From Octopus vulgaris (taxonomy: Eukaryota), in NCBI GenBank assembly GCA_951406725.2, contig OX597825.1, positions 73,346,001 to 73,410,000 of the forward strand: a stretch of 64,000 bases of DNA. Direction: 5' to 3'. Of the stretch, positions 3,224-44,716 are shown in pieces. A program made the translations under genes and the position numbers. Position 1 is the first letter of the stretch. The number at the start of each line of letters is the position of its first letter. Under the pieces are notes generated by a model. The model was not told the origin of the DNA. It made no database searches and worked only from the letters and a program-made list of their open reading frames with translations.

Positions 3224-3298
<75 letters not shown>

Positions 3299-3331
3299 CT
3301 TTATTTTAAGCAGCAGAAAATTCAACAAAAT

Positions 3332-3369
3332 CTGTTACTCTGAGTTTCTCGTTGCCGTTCATCAGACAG
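3332..3369 (-). ncRNA. Minimal type-I hammerhead ribozyme (mirror copy in left arm)
   Basis: Reverse complement identical to 5519-5556. Confidence 0.75.
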
Positions 3370-4392
3370 TTTTTGCTAGAATGGAACATATATATTAATT
3401 CAATCTATACTCTTACAAACGCTACACCTTTAAAAAGAAATGGACTTGTTTGATTGGCCCTTTAGAAAAAACGGTCAATCTTCGAGCGATAAACAAAAAG
3501 GTCAAAAATATATGTATATATATATAAAAACTTATAAAAATTATAAAATCCGAGGAAAATACCGAGGAAAAACCTGTTGCCGTTAATGAAGACAGTACAA
3601 ATTAATGCATAGAAATTAAACCTGTTATAAATACTGCAATACATATTTATATTAAAATCCACATATATATATCAACATACACAAAAGGATGCGCGTAAAC
3701 GCCATACATACATATACAGACGTATGAATATGAATCTAAATTATACACATAAAAGCATGTGTACATATATTCACGCAAACCGTCTCGCACGCAAGCTAAA
3801 ATTCATCTATGTAGCAATTCTCATATACTGAGCAAGGAGGGGGAACGAAAGAAAGGGAAAGAGAGAAAAAGGAGCGGAGGAGGGGTGGGGAAAAAAGTAG
3901 CGATGTTATTTGGCATCTATAGAGGCCAGTATACATACACAAGTTTGAATTGATACATATACATACCGTCGTGTATATGTGTGCTTAAGCACAAGCATAC
4001 TTTCACTTACACATACACAGATACGCATGCTTACAAATACATATGCTTTGCTATACACAAACTTATATAAACATTCTAAATTTGACAACATTGCTTTTTT
4101 TATAAAAAAAAAAACAAAACAAAAAAACATTGCTTTTAAAAAATGGGTGCATTAATAAAAATATATACGAAAGACCTATAAAATAAAATATAACATCCTA
4201 TTTTGGGTCATTTATAAATAATCAAGGTAATATAAATAATCAAGGTAATCTTATGCAATACAATAACATGAAAACAAAGTTTGTAGGTTTTTCCTAATAT
4301 ATATGTAGAAACAATAAGACTTTGCTATAGGTCCGTTGTAGCGCTCAAGAGTCAAAATCAAAATCAAAAAATCAAAATACAAAATATATACT

Positions 4393-4530
4393 CTATCCAT
4401 ATGGTATATTTATATTCGACATTTTAAATTTAGCCTTGTGCCTACATAAGTTCATTAATTCACTTCTTTGATTCAAAGAATTATTGTCTTTGAATAATAT
4501 GTGCATTTTTTCTAATAAGCAAAGCCTGCA
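4393..4530 (-). pseudogene. C-terminal remnant of a PLE GIY-YIG endonuclease ORF
   Basis: Minus-strand translation CRLCLLEKMHILFKDNNSLNQRSELMNLCRHKAKFKMSNINIPYG*; the CxLCxxEK...LNxRxE...CRH pattern is recognised from the C-terminus of PLE GIY-YIG domains (from memory, not database-checked). Confidence 0.75.
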
Positions 4531-5518
4531 CTTGACTCTTGAGCGCTACAACGGACCTATAGCAAAGTCTTATTGTTTCTACATATATATTAGGAAAAAC
4601 CTACAAACTTTGTTTTCATGTTATTGTATTGCATAAGATTACCTTGATTATTTATATTACCTTGATTATTTATAAATGACCCAAAATAGGATGTTATATT
4701 TTATTTTATAGGTCTTTCGTATATATTTTTATTAATGCACCCATTTTTTAAAAGCAATGTTTTTTTTTTTTTTTTTTTTATAAAAAAAGCAATGTTGTCA
4801 AATTTAGAATGTTTATATAAGTTTGTGTATAGCAAAGCATATGTATTTGTAAGCATGCGTATCTGTGTATGTGTAAGTGAAAGTATGCTTGTGCTTAAGC
4901 ACACATATACACGACGGTATGTATATGTATCAATTCAAACTTGTGTATGTATACTGGCCTCTATAGATGCCAAATAACATCGCTACTTTTTTCCCCACCC
5001 CTCCTCCGCTCCTTTTTTTCTCTCTTTCCCTTTCTTTCGTTCCCCCTCCTTGCTCAGTATATGAGAATTGCTACATAGATGAATTTTAGCTTGCGTGCGA
5101 GACGGTTTGCGTGAATATATGTACACATGCTTTTATGTGTATAATTTAGATTCATATTCATACGTCTGTATATGTATGTATGGCGTTTACGCGCATCCTT
5201 TTGTGTATGTTGATATATATATGTGGATTTTAATATAAATATGTATTGCAGTATTTATAACAGGTTTAATTTCTATGCATTAATTTGTACTGTCTTCATT
5301 AACGGCAACAGGTTTTTTTCCTCGGTATTTTCCTCGGATTTTATAATTTTTATAAGTTTTTATATATATATACATATATTTTTGACCTTTTTGTTTATCG
5401 CTCGAAGATTGACCGTTTTTTTCTAAAGGGCCAATCAAACAAGTCCATTTCTTTTTAAAGGTGTAGCGTTTGTAAGAGTATAGATTGAATTAATATATAT
5501 GTTCCATTCTAGCAAAAA

Positions 5519-5556
5519 CTGTCTGATGAACGGCAACGAGAAACTCAGAGTAACAG
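5519..5556 (+). ncRNA. Minimal type-I hammerhead ribozyme
   Basis: CTGT-CTGATGA-a CG GCAA CG a-GAAA-CTC a GAG-TA|ACAG: stem I CTGT/ACAG, intact core, GNRA-capped stem II, near-loopless stem III, GUA site. Confidence 0.75.
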
Positions 5557-5689
5557 ATTTTGTTGAATTTTCTGCTGCTTAAAATAAAGCATATTACTCT
5601 ACCACTGGTATTTGAGTACTCTTTTTTCCACCTTGTTTCACATTTATGTGTTTACTCCGGTCTATATATTTATATATATATATATATAT

Positions 5690-6070
5690 AACTGGGACCC
5701 ATGGTAGTGACCCGTAAAGAACACCTTTTGAGCGTTGGGCCCCATGGAGGCAATGACCAGGACCTTTGGCATTATGTCATGCTTGAGAAGAAGAACCATC
5801 AAGCTGAACAAAATCACAGTCATGGAAGATACCAGTGTGACGCAAATGGCACCCATTCTAGTGGCACATAAAAATGTCACCTGAGCTGGTGGCATTTAAA
5901 AACACCCATTACACTCTTCGAGTGGTTGGTATTAAGGAAGAGCATGCAGCCATAGAAAACCATGCCAAATCAGATTGGAGTCTGGTGCAGCCTTCCAGCA
6001 TGCCAGCCCGGACAAACCATCCAACCCATGCCTGCATAGACAACAGATGTTAAATGATGATGATGATGAA
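5690..6070 (+). mobile_element. SINE family D (ends in (GAT)n; RTE-like tail)
   Basis: gagtggttggYRttaggaagggcatccagc...aacccatgccagcatg...ttaaatgatgatgat recurs at about 12300-12505, 13790-13965, 15100-15290(-), 17730-17910, 50380-50460 and 56960-57200. Confidence 0.7.
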
Positions 6071-12946: not shown

Positions 12947-13003
12947 GATATATATATATATATACGGGTGTGTGTGATTGTGTATAGAAGAATATATTAA
13001 TAA

Positions 13004-13417
13004 ATTAATAAAAAGAATTCCAACCTTGTCTGATTTTCACGTTTTATTTACAATCTTATAATGATATAATATAAGATAATATAATATAATAAAATAAAAT
13101 AAAATAATAGAATGTTAAATGTTCATTCTGATTGAACTAGTACTTTCATGCATTAAATTCTGCAATCTTCAGGTTCATGTAGTAGTGTTGACAGTCATGC
13201 TTCACAATTTTTGACTGTCAAAAATTGTGAAGCATGACTGTCACCACTACTACATGAACCCGAAGATTGCAGAATTTAATGCATGAAAGTACTAGTTCAA
13301 TCAGAATGAACATTTAACATTCTATTATTTTATTTTATTTTATTATATTATATTATCTTATATCATTATAAGATTGTAAATAAAACGTGAAAATCAGACA
13401 AGGTTGGAATTCCTTTA

Positions 13418-13422
<5 letters not shown>
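13004..13422. mobile_element. Fold-back PLE-like fragment with 1-nt loop and a hammerhead in both arms
   Basis: Arms 13004-13215 / 13217-13422 centred on 13216; flanked by TA-rich sequence. Confidence 0.75.
13134..13176 (-). ncRNA. Minimal type-I hammerhead ribozyme
   Basis: GAAC-CTGAAGA-t TGCA gaatttaa TGCA t-GAAA-GTAC-TA|GTTC; palindromic stem III; the + strand copy at 13256-13298 has a U4C change (CCGAAGA). Confidence 0.8.
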
Positions 13423-13460
<38 letters not shown>

Positions 13461-15100: not shown

Positions 15101-15950
15101 ATCATCATCATCATCATCATCATTTAGTGTCCGCCTTCCATGCTAGCATGGGTTGGACGGGTCAACTGGGGTCTGTGAAGCTGGAAGGCTTCGTCAGGCC
15201 CAGTCAGATCTGGCAGTGTTTCTACGGCTGGATGCCCTTCCTAACGCCAACCACTCCGCGAGTGTAGTGGGTGTTTTTTACGTGCCACCTGCACGTATAT
15301 ATATATATATATATATAGTGTTCATGTGTGTGTGTCAATGTATCTGTTTACACAATAATGACAGGAATGATTTCAAGGCCAGCTGGAGCCAGGATTAGCT
15401 TTGTGAGCCTAGTGCTATTCTTCATTTTTGCCCTATTCTGTATATGCCTCTCACAAGACCCCTTGCCCTCATTTGCTCTTCTATCTGTTTGTGCCAACAT
15501 ATGTATATAACCCTCAGTAGTGGCCACATACCACTTTGGTATCTTTAAGCTCAACTCTGACCCTGTGGACAAATCTAATACCTTAGTATTGTGGCATAAA
15601 TCTGACCCTGTGGCAGCTGTGGTTAAATTATCATGGTATGCTGTTAGGTTTTACGTATGGCATTATGGGGTAGGGTGATGGTCACATGGTCTGATATTAG
15701 GTTTAAATATGTGTGGCGAAGGGTTAAGGTAATATGAACAGGTAGTAAGTTTAACACTGGCACTGCATGATGGAAAGGTTAAAGTGGGATAGTCTGAGAC
15801 AGGGTTTAAATCTGACAGTAAGGATTAGAAATAAGATAATACGGTCCGGTATTAGGTTTAAACCTGACATGGAGAAATTTGGTTAACATAGTATGGTGTT
15901 TGTATTATGGTTAAAGTTAATGTTGTAGTAGAGAGTTAATTGAGTTATGC

Positions 15951-17337
15951 TGTAGTAATATGGTTAAATATGACACGGATAATCTGGTTTAAGTTAACAT
16001 TGTGATAATGGGATTAATGTGGTATTGTGTAGTATTATGGTTAAATATGACACGGATAATCTGGTTTAAGTTAACATTGTGATAATGGGATTAACGTGGT
16101 ATTGTGTAGTAATATGGTTAAATATGACACGGATAATCTGGTTTAAGTTAACATTGTGATAATGGGATTAATGTGGTATTGTGTAGTATTATGGTTAAAT
16201 ATGACACGGATAATCTGGTTTAAGTTAACATTGTGATAATGGGATTAACGTGGTATTGTGTAGTAATATGGTTAAATATGACACGGATAATCTGGTTTAA
16301 GTTAACATTGTGATAATGGGATTAATGTGGTATTGTGTAGTATTATGGTTAAATATGACACGGATAATCTGGTTTAAGTTAACATTGTGATAATGGGTTT
16401 AATGTGGTATTGTGTAGTAATATGGTTAAATAGGACACGGATAATCTGGTTTAAGCTAACATTATGGTAAAGGGATTAATGTGGTATTGTGTAGTAATAT
16501 GGTTAAATATGACACGGATAATCTGGTTTAAGTTAACATTGTGGTAAAGGGATTAATGTGGTATTGTGTAGTAATATGGTTAAATATGACACGGATAATC
16601 TGGTTTAAGTTAACATTGTGATAATGGGTTTAATGTGGTATTGTGTAGTAATATGGTTAAATAGGACACGGATAATCTGGTTTAAGCTAACATTATGGTA
16701 AAGTGATTAATGTGGTATTGTGTAGTATTATGGTTAAATATGACACGGATAATCTGGTTTAAGTTATCATTATGGTAAAGGGATTAATGTGGTATTGTGT
16801 AGTAATATGGTTAAATATGACACGGATAATCTGGTTTAAGTTAACATTGTGGTAAAGGGATTAATGTGGTATTGTGTTGTATTATGGTTAAATATGACAC
16901 GGATAATCTGGTTTAAGTTAACATTATGGTAAAGGGATTAATGTGGTATTGTGTAGTAATATGGTTAAATATGACACGGATAATCTGGTTTAAGTTAACA
17001 TTGTGGTAAAGGGATTAATGTGGTATTGTGTAGTAATATGGTTAAAAATGACACGGATAATCTGGTTTAAGTTAACATTGTGATAAAAGGATTAATGTGG
17101 TATCATGTAGTATTATGGTTAAATATGACACGGATAATAAGGTTTAAGTTAACATTGTGATAATGGGATTAATGTGGTATTGTGTGACACAGATAATCTG
17201 GTTTAAGTTAACATTATGGTAAAGGGATTAATGTGGTATTGTGTAGTATTATGGTTAAATATGACACGGATAATCTGGTTTAAGTTAACATTGTGATAAT
17301 GGGATTAACGTGGTATTGTGTAGAATTATGGTTAAAC
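15951..17337. repeat. 77-bp tandem minisatellite, about 18 copies
   Basis: cacggataat recurs at 15974, 16051, 16128, etc. (period 77); one internally deleted unit near 17185; degenerate flanks. Confidence 0.95.
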
Positions 17338-19898
17338 ATCACACAGGGGTATGTAGTTAATGTTTTATGGTAGAATACTGGAGATTAAAGCTGATGCTGT
17401 GGGGAATAGGGTTAAGCATAACACAGTTTTATGCTGTTAAAGTGTGTATGTGGAGGGACATTGTGATGAAATTTCAGGGTAGATACTCAGATGTCTGGTT
17501 ATTTTACCCTTTATCTTTCAGTCAGGAGAGAAGGTAGGTGCCTGCAATTCCTTACAGGCCCTCCAAGACAAGTAAATGTAAAAGAGGCAATTATCCTCAA
17601 ACTTGAGACCTGGCCTGAATGTTTGGAACATTGTGGACTCTGCTAAAAGTTCTCATGCAGCTAGATGGGGTTAAATCAATGGAGAGATTAATTTATGGTA
17701 ATTGGTTAACTTTCTAGCATTCAGGTAAAAGGCACCTGCTACACTCTGTGGAGTGGTTGGTTAGCATTAAAAGGGGCATCCACCCTTAGAAACCAAGCCA
17801 AAACAGATTGGAGACTGGTTCAGCTCTCCAGCTTACCATCTCCAGTCAAACTGCCTAATCCGAAGCCAGTATGGGAAACAGACATTAAATGTTGATGATG
17901 ATGATGATTTTGAATTAATCATGCTTTATCTTGTAGCTTTGAAGTTTTGATGATGATTAAATGCTTACATTCAGAAACAACATTGTAGGGTAGGTATGAG
18001 AGGTTGGATCTGTCTCAAATAAACAGGTAAATTTAGTATAGAGTTAGATAAAAAAAAAAAAAAAAGACAATGCCTTACATGGTCATATTAACCCTTTTGA
18101 CTCTAATCCTCCTCAGATCATCCCTAGTCCTATAATATGAACTTCCTGTTTTAAAGCGATGTAAAAGCCTTCCCTCAAAATTTCTTGTTAACTCTTTTAA
18201 TACCAACAACCATGATTCCATTTCTAGTGCCATGATACAAACTTACTTTTTTTAATTGGACTAAATTAAAGCATTCTATTAAAATTTTATGTTAATTTAT
18301 ATACCATTTCCAATTACTAGTCTAATAATTACTAAGTTATTTTACTAAATTCTTTGATATTTTAAAAATGAATTCAAAGCATGAAAGTCGAGTTTATGCA
18401 ATTTCTTTAACTATTTATTTCACTATATTTTATTGAGAAGCAAAGTTTTCTGGTACAGTTGGTGTTTATATTTCTGTATTAACTGATTTCCAATGATTAG
18501 GGTGTGGGGTGTTGTGTTGGTGGGGGTGTGGATGAGTGGAATTCCTGATGTGTCTGATATGAGAATGGATAGTGTTTATAGAATTTGGTATTTGCTCAAA
18601 GTGTAGTGCATTTGAATCTACTTACAGTTTGATCTTATTCAAATTCAAATTTGAACGTACTTCATTTGTGGTGAAGTACTTTTAATTTTCCCACAGGTCT
18701 GGTAGGTTTTGGATTAAAAGTAGGACATAATTTTGACATATTTCTCTAAAAAAATCACAAGATTGCTTTAATTAAGTTTCTCTTTTTGTTGTTTATTGTC
18801 ATTGTTTTTATGTGAAAGCTGAGTAATAGAGGAACCAAAAAAAAAAAAAAGAAAAAGAAGAAAAAAAAAAGAGAACCAGTTCCCATTCTGTGTTTTAATA
18901 GATTCCAAAACAACAATTGAACTAAAGCTGACTTGAAAATTTCTCTATATGTCATTGAAAAGTTTAAAATAAAATTGGCGTGAATTCAATTTTCCAATCA
19001 ATCGATTTTAGAAGTAGGATGAAGAAACCTTTTATAAAATATTTATCAAAATTGAAACTATTTAATCACAGAAGAATATGACATTTTAACACTTCTTCAA
19101 GTCAGCTTATCATTGGAGATTTCATCAGCTAACTTTTATATGATGTTGCTTAGTTTTCGTTTGTTATTTTATATCATAATAATTCTAGAAGTTTAAAAAA
19201 AAAAAAGAAAGACAACCAAAAATCAACAGACATTGGAGAAAGCTGTCGCCAAAAAAAAAAAGAGAGAGAGAGAGAGAGTGAGTGAGAGAAAAGTAAATTG
19301 AAAAAAAAATGTTACAATAAAGAAAATGCATATCAAAAAGCAGAATAAAAAGATTAGTTTGATTGAAGCATCGGGCAACTAGTTCACAGACCACTTAGAA
19401 CATTGGGAAACTGGGGAAATGGGCAAACCTGCTGGTATTGGGCGTGCGGAATGGATATATAGATGCCACGGGTAAGCGGGTCCAACCCTGCGTTTCCTAT
19501 GCCCTAAAATTGGAAAGGAAATGCGGTCCACAGTAAAAATGAATTGCTTGAACAATAAAGGGTCGACGAAATTTTTTTCTTGCTTTTTTGCATTTTGATT
19601 TTAATCTTTAAAACGTAAATTAAAGATGCTTTTTTTTTTCGGACTTGATTAGATACCTTCATTATCATTATTATTCTTTTTTTTTTGGTTCTTGCTTGAG
19701 GACTAATTTGAAACACTAATTACAAAAAATTAGTAGCAGAATTCATAAATATTCAAAACGACGCAAATATATGTCATAAAGATTTGCAATAATTTAATAA
19801 TATGAATTTGTGTATCAAATGAACTTTCACAATTACGAATACCAGTCAGTATGATTATTTATTATCCATTAACTAATAACAAATGCACATTCTTAATT

Positions 19899-26091: not shown

Positions 26092-27345
26092 ATAATTTCG
26101 AGAAAAACCTCTATTAAACAATTCAATAATGAAAGATGTTCTTCACACCATACCATAGAAAACATATACTATAAAAACCTTATTCTAAAAATCACTAAAG
26201 TACAATAAATATTAAATAGTACTAAAAGACTACGTGCGTTTCGTCGCTATCTTTTCAAATAGATAATGATAATAAAATCAATTTGATTTAAAATTAAATC
26301 GATCTAAAATTAATTAGACGAACGAAAAATTAGATGTAGACATAAATTGAATTACTTATATAATAAGTTTAGCTAATTTGTGTGTGTATATATATAAACC
26401 TTGTTTTAAGTTACTAATTATTGTAGTTATAATTTGTAGTAGTAAAATGTGTATAAATTAGCACAAGATCATATAGTCTATATTACATAATTAGAATAAG
26501 ACGAAAATTAGATGTTTATAAAATAAATAAATTAATTAATGAAAATAGATTAAATTATAGAATTGTAGCTTCATTTACGTTTATTATATTATGTAATTTA
26601 CGTATTTAGTCTTTAAATTATTTAGACTTTACAATTTTTCCAGTAAATGGTATATCAAAGTTAATTTTTTTCTTATTCTCACAGCTAAAATACATTTGTA
26701 ATTTTAATAGCTTAAATACATATTTCTATCTATTTCTTTTATAAATTCTATTTACACCATATTTTCATACGATATATTTCTTATAAACGCTAAGTTCTAC
26801 GTATTACCTTTAAATTTTTAGTTAATGAAAATCCTTCGATAAGACAAGTTTTGTTTTTATTTTAAGAAATATTGTTAAATGTTTTTCGATTATTTATAGT
26901 TAATACACCTATTTTTATATATATTTTGATAATTAGTATAAGTTAAGATAAGTGTCATTTATTCTATTATTATTGTTTCATTATCTATTATTTTAGACCT
27001 GGTGAGTGACTATATTTTAAAGTAGAATTAATTTTAGATCGATTTAATTTTAAATCGAATTGATTTTATTATTGTTATCTATATGAAAATATAGCGACGA
27101 AACGCGTGTAGTCTTTTACTACTATTTAATATTCATTGTACTTTATTGATTTTTAGAATAAGGTTTTTATGGTATATATTTTCTATATGGTGTGAATAAC
27201 ATCTTTCATTAATGAATTGTTTGATAGGGGCTTTTCTCTAAATTATATACCTATATTATATATTGTGAAATTTGATTTAAAATAGTTAAATTGAATTTTT
27301 CCCTATAAGCTTTGGAATTATATTCCCTACTATTATTATTATATT
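26088..27345 (+). mobile_element. Older inverted PLE-like fragment with 3' tail
   Basis: Diverged arms 26088-26315 / 27026-27250, AT-rich spacer, tail 27251-27345, (TA)n flanks, hammerhead remnant. Confidence 0.72.
26995..27114 (+). ncRNA. Degenerate hammerhead with a long stem-II insertion
   Basis: AGAC-CTGGTGA-GTGACTATA...TATAGCGAC-GAAA-CGCGTG-TA|GTCT; A6G change in the core. Confidence 0.6.
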
Positions 27346-38869: not shown

Positions 38870-38955
38870 TATAATTGCTTTGGGTCCACCAAAGCCATGT
38901 GAATGGATCTTGTAGACGGCAAATGAAAAACACCCATTGTATATATCAACCAAAG

Positions 38956-39100
38956 CTGTCTGTCGAATGGGAACATGAAACTGAGTAACGGTTTTTGTGA
39001 TGTTTTTGCAGCCTTATTAAATAAACCATATTACTCTACCTCTGGTATTTGAATACTATTTTTTTCCACCTTGTTTTACATTTACGAGCTTACTCTGGTA
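38956..39100 (+). mobile_element. Solo PLE-like 3' end related to 5519-5662, with degenerate hammerhead
   Basis: CTGT-CTGTCGA-ATG ggaa CAT-GAAA-CTGAG-TA|ACGG, then tail catattactctacctctggtatttgaatact...ccaccttgtttt nearly matching 5590-5662; ends in (TA)n. Confidence 0.72.
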
Positions 39101-39160
39101 TATATATATTACTCTTTTACTCTTTTACTTGTTTCAGTCATTTGACTGTGGCCATGCTGG

Positions 39161-42319: not shown

Positions 42320-42385
<66 letters not shown>

Positions 42386-42519
42386 TTGAGTTGTGGGGTA
42401 TCGCACGAGTGGGATTATATAAGAAAAAAGGTTTGAAAATGCAATTTAAACGATGTTTATTTACTTAACCGGTTTCACTCTTTGGTAAAAGATTGTCAAA
42501 AGTTACATTTAAGGAAACA

Positions 42520-42745
42520 TTGAATAATATGGGTTCAAAAAAAGTTTTTTACATAATTGTCACATTGAATATTATGCATTCAAAAAAGTTTTTTACATAA
42601 TTGTCACATTGGATATTATGGGTTCAAAAAAGTTTTTTACATAATTGTCACATTGAATATTATGCATTCAAAAAAGTTTTTTACATAATTGTCACATTGG
42701 ATATTATGAATTCAAAAATGTTTTTTTATACATAATTGTCACATT
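42520..42745. repeat. 44-bp tandem repeat (about 4.5-5 copies) inside the PLE-like arm, mirrored at about 44330-44555
   Basis: gttttttacataattgtcacatt recurs at 42544, 42588, 42632, etc.; alternating A/B variants. Confidence 0.9.
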
Positions 42746-43121
42746 ATTTGGGAAAATTTGGCAGAAAAGGATAAAACAAATATATTATTGGGAATTGGTT
42801 GCGTTAATTATTGGTTGTCGCAAATTGTCACATTACATGTATATATATACAATCTTTGGTATATATATACAGCGTTTTGACAGCAAAAATTAAAATGGAT
42901 TTTTTGTCCATCTCAGAATATTTTAAGTATGTTTTTACTGACCTGTCAGTATTAGCAGAAAGGCTGAACTGAGAGAACAGAAGTAGCCAATGTGGTGTAT
43001 ACTTCCCCTTTATGCATGAATGATTTTGGGGTTATCAGGAGGTTAGTATGCGGGTGTGAATAGATGTGTCCGTGCCTGCTGGTCAGACAGCGTCTGTTTG
43101 TCACACACATATATATACACA

Positions 43122-43158
<37 letters not shown>

Positions 43159-44569
43159 TATACAAACACAAACCACATACAAACAACACACACACACACA
43201 GAACACACACACCCACACACAACGCACCCACATATATCACATATACACACAGCACACAAATATAACATGTATCTATATATAACATACACAGATATATAAC
43301 ACACATACACACACACACACACAACACACGCACACATACATACATAATATAAATATCACACAAATACACCTAGCATATATATATACACACATACAATACA
43401 CACATACAGCATGTAAGTAATATACATACACAATATATGCATGCAATATACATACGCAATACATACATACAATATATATATATATAGACAATGCATATAC
43501 ATATATACACATATACATATAAATAGTGTTTACATACACATACATAGATGTACCACATATACACACAACACACATACATACAATGCATACACATACACGT
43601 ACGCATACATATAATATATATATACACACACACACATAACATACATACACACACAATGCATACATATATACACGCAATGCATATACATGTATTCATGCAC
43701 ATATAGCACACCTACAATATACATATATACAGTGCACACATACACACAAATATATACACTTAATTGTACACGTACATATACAATACACATACATACAATA
43801 TACATATATACAATGCGCATGCAAATAATGTACATGTTTATACATGTGTGTGGGTGTGTGTGTTCTGTGTGTGTGTGTGTTGTTTGTATGTGGTTTGTGT
43901 TTGTATACTATGTGTGTGTGTGTGTGTGTTGTTGTGTGTGTGTGTGTTTGTGTGTATATATATATGTGTGTGACAAACAGACGCTGTCTGACCAGCAGGC
44001 ACGGACACATCTATTCACACCCGCATACTAACCTCCTGATAACCCCAAAATCATTCATGCATAAAGGGGAAGTATACACCACATTGGCTACTTCTGTTCT
44101 CTCAGTTCAGCCTTTCTGCTAATACTGACAGGTCAGTAAAAACATACTTAAAATATTCTGAGATGGACAAAAAATCCATTTTAATTTTTGCTGTCAAAAC
44201 GCTGTATATATATACCAAAGATTGTATATATATACATGTAATGTGACAATTTGCGACAACCAATAATTAACGCAACCAATTCCCAATAATATATTTGTTT
44301 TATCCTTTTCTGCCAAATTTTCCCAAATAATGTGACAATTATGTATAAAAAAACATTTTTGAATTCATAATATCCAATGTGACAATTATGTAAAAAACTT
44401 TTTTGAATGCATAATATTCAATGTGACAATTATGTAAAAAACTTTTTTGAACCCATAATATCCAATGTGACAATTATGTAAAAAACTTTTTTGAATGCAT
44501 AATATTCAATGTGACAATTATGTAAAAAACTTTTTTGAACCCATATTATTCAATGTTTCCTTAAATGTA

Positions 44570-44610
44570 ACTTTTGACAATCTTTTACCAAAGAGTGAAA
44601 CCGGTTAAGT
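44570..44610 (+). ncRNA. Candidate variant hammerhead (U3-A8 core); mirror copy at 42463-42503(-)
   Basis: ACTT-TTGACAA-t CTTTT acca AAGAG t-GAAA-CCGG-TT|AAGT. Confidence 0.6.
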
Positions 44611-44649
44611 AAATAAACATCGTTTAAATTGCATTTTCAAACCTTTTTT

Positions 44650-44716
<67 letters not shown>

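Follow-up and report, generated by a model that had tools for sequence, protein, structure and literature searches.

A likely head-to-head insertion of a Hydra-type Penelope-like element in Octopus vulgaris and the one-tailed ends of its family

Background

To our knowledge, only one protein of a Penelope-like element (PLE) has been studied whole in vitro. According to the parts of Craig et al. (2021, PMC8557442) drawn on here, PLEs of the Hydra clade have a C-terminal endonuclease and the motifs RWK, DKT and CxCx5C, without the CCHH motif and with no fingers insertion; a possible CxxC and a CxH around the E and N residues, a hammerhead and (TA)n targets mark the clade further. The same parts of that paper note a 5'-truncated inverted copy for Penelope-13_HM and name the formation of tandem and inverted PLE structures as an open task.

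The protein of Poseidon_Ac (PAc, green anole), in the sections of Frangieh et al. (2024, PMC11167929) used here, cuts and extends both target strands in vitro, is predicted to dimerise and uses unprocessed RNA as its main template. Its reverse transcription starts at two fixed sites that bound the tail, with no difference of site between the strands in vitro. A term search of the main text of that paper found no discussion of inverted insertions or duplications. Inverted pseudo-LTR (pLTR) insertions of Penelope elements in Adineta vaga, as presented in the portion of Arkhipova et al. (2013, PMC3846280) consulted, are head-to-head, with a tail at one end, a short target duplication and joins at microhomologies. 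The clade, the inverted layout, the one-end tail and the preference for TA are already published. In the parts seen of the literature outside subscription papers, Repbase and Dfam, including the main text of a 2026 retrozyme preprint, we met no count of one-tailed insertions and no description of the family reported here, and the part of PMC9977147 consulted holds nothing on tails. An octopus study lists 31 recently active Penelope-like families, with clades unnamed in the text concerned (PMC13282606), and the present family may be included in a library of that kind.

Results

The fold-back at 3299-5662

The DNA analysed, hereafter the window, is a stretch of 64,000 nt of the O. vulgaris contig OX597825.1 (positions 73,346,001 to 73,410,000, forward strand), and all coordinates below are those of the window. 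The initial annotation had placed the spacer of a 1-kb inverted repeat at 4356-4531, and this was borne out. The features of the fold-back are as follows:

3285..3298, plus strand: left copy of the target-site duplication, 14 nt (TATATATTTATATA), closing a (TA)n run
3299..4535, minus strand: copy A, 5'-truncated, consisting of the last 46 codons, the stop and the 3' UTR; its plain (short) 3' end is at 3299
3299..4392, minus strand: 3' UTR or pseudo-LTR part of copy A, 1,094 nt
3332..3369, minus strand: hammerhead-like motif (type I) of copy A, compared by eye with the published Hydra-2_aMil parse
4356..4531, no strand: fold-back spacer, the 176 nt of extra 5' sequence in copy A relative to copy B
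4393..4533, minus strand: C-terminus of the RT-endonuclease ORF, 46 codons and stop, with CxxC, conserved E and N, and CxH; without a start codon
4532..4535, no strand: inversion junction, a 4-nt microhomology (TTGA) common to copies A and B
4532..5662, plus strand: copy B, 5'-truncated, 3' UTR only, with the tailed 3' end
5519..5556, plus strand: hammerhead-like motif (type I) of copy B, with a cut predicted from sequence after 5552
5590..5662, plus strand: tail of 73 nt, the same sequence with which the next tandem unit begins, on copy B only
5663..5676, plus strand: right copy of the target-site duplication, 14 nt, the same TATATATTTATATA

The two arms pair in 1,057 of 1,058 columns, the sole mismatch (3298) lying in the flank, and gaps between them are confined to A runs or the edges of such runs; the recent insertion that had been suggested from near-identical arms is thereby backed. 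Copy B matches back to 4532, and other copies have TCAA where copy A has the junction. The minus strand had also been described as about 1 kb of UTR ending in a hammerhead. The UTR is indeed of that length (4392-3299), whereas the hammerhead motif is not terminal, 37 nt separating it from the plain end. The ORF remnant is non-coding here and has no function of its own.

A long-read fold-back chimera would also place two inverted arms side by side, and among the contigs listed from four DNA runs (compared with 4356-6050) none spans the junction of the window, the contigs breaking in repeats. Such an artefact is nevertheless extremely unlikely, given the target duplication, the asymmetric tail, the junction microhomology, the different flanks on the two sides of the fold-back and the recurrence of this grammar at 65 further loci. 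We consider it likely that 3299-5662 is a single recent, 5'-truncated, head-to-head insertion of a Hydra-clade PLE, probably made by two RT reactions primed on opposite strands of (TA)n.

The peptide and its parent element

Translation of the minus strand from 4530 to 4393 gave exactly the 45 residues and stop reported by the initial annotation, and the match to the intact ORF begins one codon earlier, at 4533. When this peptide was searched against its own genome (2.8 Gb, AT- and microsatellite-rich), all 150 scored matches, from 3,053 first-look candidates, were 100% identical, and 17 of them lay within a 727-residue open frame. The 150 matches represent 106 loci including the window, and all 105 others, full-length copies among them, were retrieved; the loci were chosen from matches extending into the ORF, those with the best scores and therefore the youngest. 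The peptide constitutes the final codons of a 711-codon ORF that is intact at 18 of the 105 loci. These 18 ORFs differ on average by 6.3 nt (0.29%), and their variant codons are 26 synonymous and 15 non-synonymous. Since neutral change would yield about three times more non-synonymous than synonymous variants, selection acted on the protein of the source copies.

The parent unit, defined by tandem copies, is 3,356 nt long with the ATG at position 139, and is laid out as the 73-nt tail, 65 nt to the ATG, the 711-codon ORF for RT and GIY-YIG, and a 1.1-kb UTR with the hammerhead motif. It shows the hallmarks of endonuclease-bearing (EN+) PLEs, namely 5' truncation, partial tandems (pLTR), an inverted 5' copy and a tail at one end. 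When the unit is divided into 30 bins, 26-29 of them are covered by three runs presumed to be RNA, which come from three studies; A>G differences were rejected as RNA editing, being equally common in a run of uncertain kind.

Pfam returned nothing for either the peptide or the full protein, and PDB sequence searches were equally without a match. These blanks are what would be expected of a fortuitous frame or a host-protein fragment, a reading that is refuted by the 150 identical genome matches out of 150 and that we regard as practically negligible. Of 7,992 scored candidates, 1,938 are full-length relatives of the ORF protein at E<=1e-10 (best 58%), and a profile of 116 homologues run against all six frames of the window picked out this frame alone (E 7e-13; next best E 1.9). 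Pfam applied to 8 of 120 relatives had as its sole useful result a GIY-YIG match on one of them (P0003). Predicted structures speak against chance as well. The model of the 710-aa product (pLDDT 93.9), which has the YRDD motif, gave TERT as its top Foldseek match (E 3.3e-10). A wider fold search with the full model ranked DRT2 (Z 14.6) and a DGR RT (14.0) just above telomerase (12.9), the leading rows spanning Z 14.6-12.5, and the predicted fold therefore indicates an RT and merely leans to TERT. When the last 161 residues were folded separately (pLDDT 91, with the first few residues misaligned in the input), the predicted domain resembled I-TevI (Z 9.8, rmsd 2.3, 89 residues aligned), followed by EndoII (7.3) and UvrC (6.7), and Foldseek gave for this domain a weak match with the UvrC GIY-YIG domain first (E 0.99). 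The conserved set of GIY-YIG enzymes (VVY...YTG, R609, H613, E673 and N686) is unchanged in all 116 of the aligned relatives. The proposed origin of the peptide, at the C-terminal end of the GIY-YIG domain in an autonomous PLE, is supported: the full-length copies have both an RT and an endonuclease.

At L013:4455-6347, a 630-residue frame crosses the inversion junction into the element ORF, and several other junctions have similar frames; these are probably due to chance.

Assignment to the Hydra clade

The clade had been guessed as Naiad/Hydra-like, of which the Hydra half was retained and the Naiad half dropped. We compared motifs and features by eye with the reference PLEs in the supplement of PMC8557442, as far as it was used here, and membership of the parent element in the Hydra clade is supported by this sequence comparison. 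As in that clade, a single ORF runs from RT to a C-terminal GIY-YIG endonuclease, with no N-terminal CxC motif and no fingers insertion, RT3 and RT4 being 59 residues apart as against 60 in Hydra-1_Obim (hand count). RWK, in RLRWKAFF (37-39), replaces GxKF/Y, and DKT, in SDKT (113-115), replaces DKG. The linker CxCx5C is formed by C562, C564 and C570, and there are no Cys between VVY and YTG, so that CCHH is absent. CxxC and CxH (C667, C670, C695 and H697), putatively metal-binding as first proposed, flank E and N and are invariant in 116 of 116 relatives. Further shared features, in the same parts of that paper, are the (TA)n target and a hammerhead near the 3' end.

Naiad and Chlamys were rejected for their N-terminal GIY-YIG, DKA or DK, fingers insertion and lack of a canonical hammerhead, as opposed to the C-terminal endonuclease, DKT and hammerhead motif seen here. 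Neptune, Nematis and Penelope/Poseidon were rejected because they have two Cys in the GIY-YIG core (CCHH) and DKG, both of which are missing from the parent ORF.

With regard to length, the family departs from the Hydra description of 'generally <3 kb'; the unit of 3,356 nt, with its long UTR, compares with consensuses of 1.1-3.0 kb among the Hydra elements listed in the parts of PMC8557442 used. The wording there is 'generally', one Hydra element being listed at 3,045 nt, and the length trait is descriptive rather than defining. The tail of 73 nt also exceeds the 30-40 bp given for PLEs in the same source, and pseudo-LTR tandems are clear here (21 of 106 loci), whereas Hydra-1_Obim is listed without pLTR. 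To this element from Octopus bimaculoides, 38 of 82 residues are identical in the first block of Fig. S7 in that source (hand count), and its hammerhead differs; on these two sequence comparisons the parent family is separate from Hydra-1_Obim.

The hammerhead-like motif

In copy B the motif consists of stem I (CTGT/ACAG), CTGATGA, a stem II of just 2 bp with a GCAA loop and an A.A adjoining the core, GAA, and a palindromic stem III (ACTC-A-GAGT), and it is almost the same as the Hydra-2_aMil parse in the portion of the PMC8557442 supplement consulted. It is identical in 165 of the 171 copies read, the loci partly overlapping. Palindromic stems III of this kind are thought to act as dimers, according to the part of PMC4209133 seen. 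Rfam reported no hammerhead in the window at gathering score or at E<=10, and a single copy folded in silico did not adopt the hammerhead fold. The hammerhead, tail and start-site region folded no better than shuffled sequence (z -0.1 to -1.0), and the idea that both start sites lie at hairpin bases was dropped as unsupported for this reason. A degenerate second hammerhead 5' half (CTGT...ACGGCAAC) is found at 5290-5312 on the plus strand, roughly 230 nt upstream from the intact one, with its mirror at about 3575-3597.

Read depth in DNA runs was about 10 times higher over the hammerhead-tail region than over the UTR, suggesting that related or non-autonomous families share this end of the element. 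At 38952-39102 the window matches the family's hammerhead and tail at 81% and continues into TA; this stretch is the decayed remnant of a tailed end from a related element.

Ends and targets across the family

Two called ends in inverted order were found at 66 of the 106 loci, and in all but one of these insertions (65/66) a plain end is paired with a tailed one (binomial p 2e-18 against 1:1), the exception having two tails. The remaining loci comprise 33 with one called end (17 plain, 16 tailed), 6 with none and 1 with two ends in the same direction. L110/L111 form a duplicate pair within the 66; this pair and L083/L084 are insertions that share their break points over distances of 12.5 kb and 30.6 kb, and represent later segmental duplications or assembly duplicates.

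All 167 called ends are followed by a TA-type repeat. The length of the target duplication could be read at 8 informative sites, where the repeat is interrupted, and was 14 nt in 6, 12 nt in one and 38 nt in one, the last probably by chance.

Comparison of the two arms

Among 47 simple two-arm insertions, the plain arm extends more than 40 nt further 5' in 18 (the window included) and the tailed arm does so in 16, while in 13 the two are within 40 nt of each other. In the group of 18 neither arm is a full copy of the other, because the plain arm is longer 5' and the tail is on the other arm only. This bears on the possibility that the inverted duplication arose without second priming, either by a pure single-primer fold-back or by later rearrangement. 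Near-identical arms with a usually common haplotype would follow from such an event, yet each arm of the window has sequence missing in the other (the 176-nt spacer, the 73-nt tail), exact element ends are present on both outer sides, and there is one 14-nt duplication. The mutually missing sequence in 18 of 47 insertions largely refutes this explanation, which we judge highly unlikely, and priming on both target strands is preferred.

After masking of homopolymer and dinucleotide neighbourhoods (596 positions), the arms of the same insertion differ at 54 of 70,301 sites (0.077%, 54 insertions), as compared with 0.52% between insertions (2,862 pairs); the unmasked values are 0.18% and 0.70%, respectively. 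Minor alleles of the family are common to both arms in 132 of 140 cases within insertions versus 2,106 of 14,706 between them, and 50 of 56 insertions are fully concordant. Insertion-private variants occur on both arms in 32 cases and on one arm in 41. In three-segment insertions most alleles run through every segment.

Both truncation points are at most 100 nt apart at 16 of 68 junctions (shuffle mean 4.9). Junction microhomology, estimated by exact match, is a noisy measure in which 14 of 38 values are negative (that of the window included) owing to homopolymer differences; among the 24 non-negative values, 13 are at least 2 nt, compared with 18% by chance.

The main rival to priming of two independent cDNAs is a mixed reaction in which both nicks are primed and one cDNA stays short, reaching barely beyond the tail, while the other folds back on a 4-nt complement and copies itself; the new sense strand then anneals to the short cDNA, and most of the second arm would be a DNA copy of the first. 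The junctions fit this equally well, the TTGA of the window (4532-4535) being complementary to a TCAA on the same strand (4352-4355). The 32 private variants on both arms and the near-equal truncation points (13 of the 47 insertions) would also fit self-primed copy-back of much of one arm, and self-priming has been proposed for palindromic junctions in the consulted part of PMC3846280. The allele data point the other way: family alleles are discordant in 6 of 56 insertions, the inverted arms of L032 and L023 do not mirror the neighbouring segment (that of L032 lacking the variants of the adjoining segment), and L015 carries a private allele on all three segments, as a source allele would be. 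We therefore regard the mixed reaction as unlikely.

Discussion

A model of paired priming

Taken together, the one-tailed ends (65/66), the arms that differ by 0.08% within as against 0.52% between insertions, and the mutually missing sequence in 18 of 47 cases favour paired priming on both target strands. The mechanism is read from genomic footprints. The element protein, probably as a dimer like that predicted for PAc, would nick the two strands 14 nt apart; priming would begin at the plain site for one nick and 73 nt 3' of that site for the other, on RNA left uncut at the hammerhead. As both start sites lie behind the predicted cut, by 37 and 110 nt, the template would have to be longer than the unit or circular, and it would come mostly from one source copy. 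Both cDNAs would end early, and their 3' ends would pair over a few complementary bases (TTGA/TCAA in the window), whereupon fill-in would produce the inverted repeat. The spacer would then be the extra 176 nt of one cDNA, which reached the last ORF codons by chance.

In more general terms, PLEs would integrate by an asymmetric paired reaction, in which one RNP nicks 14 nt apart and each nick has its own fixed start on single-source RNA, the single tail being a rule of the mechanism rather than optional; in this genome a Neptune-type family follows it as well, in 5 of 5 inverted insertions. We lean towards this proposal with some reserve: the family includes one two-tailed insertion and informative duplications of 12 and 38 nt, and the identity of the arms could alternatively come from homogenisation by gene conversion or from assembly polishing.

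In LINE-1 twin priming both target strands likewise prime and the products join by microhomology, but the second primer is internal and variably placed, and the inverted parts do not overlap. Here both starts are fixed and 73 nt apart, which accounts for the near-full overlap of the arms. With PAc, as described in the sections of PMC11167929 used, the family shares two fixed tail-bounding starts, both downstream of the hammerhead cut, and an AT-rich target. PAc belongs to another clade, however; both starts here are upstream of the ATG, and the tail is about twice as long. Moreover, PAc was studied in vitro, whereas the coupling of site to end was counted here on genomic copies. As PAc shows no strand difference, the coupling of start site to strand is not yet explained biochemically. 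The A. vaga insertions, in the part of PMC3846280 consulted, have duplications of 8-10 bp, a 31-bp tail in few copies and a self-priming account, in contrast to 14 nt, 73 nt and 66 cases here.

Age and significance

At a rate of 0.0036 per site per My, given for one octopus species in the part of PMC13282606 seen and borrowed here, the arm difference corresponds to about 0.1 My, the ORF difference to about 0.4 My, and the window copy, with 0 substitutions in 1,057 sites, to less than about 0.4 My. The arms may look younger than they are through gene conversion or polishing.

The locus itself is ordinary retrotransposon debris, and the family is of modest value. What is added are the counts, namely one tail in 65 of 66 insertions, the 14-nt stagger and the same-source arms, which turn a qualitative published remark into a prediction for biochemical assay; the family provides genomic copies on which an open question of mechanism can be tested cleanly. 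If asymmetric pairing is true, this young Hydra family, with its intact ORFs and 73-nt tail, would be a ready test substrate. Since the Pfam version used misses the Hydra clade, fold-backs of this kind can readily escape annotation or be misread.

Other repeats in the window

The peptide had been put forward as the protein link between the fold-backs of the window and a retroelement. This is correct for 3299-5662, and does not extend to three other repeats. A second fold-back in (TA)n, at 42379-44655, has a tail of about 40 nt at its left end only. It matches another locus (L175) with an upstream ORF followed by 776 residues that include DKG, an RVT_1 match (E 6e-8), a linker with CxxC and a GIY-YIG core containing two Cys; the upstream ORF and the RT-endonuclease ORF are also present in L174. 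By these motifs the family is a different, Neptune-type PLE. Its hammerhead-like motif has TTGACAA where the Hydra-type has CTGATGA, and one tail was seen in all 5 inverted insertions with both ends seen.

For the other two repeats no linked ORF was found in 8 loci each. At 12990-13430 there is a near-perfect palindrome in (TA)n, belonging to a repeat family with 96-98% matches, several of them as inverted pairs, and at 26095-27250 an older inverted pair (about 90% to other copies) flanks a 710-nt AT-rich spacer. The window also contains a tandem array with a 77-nt period and about 20 units at 15826-17416.
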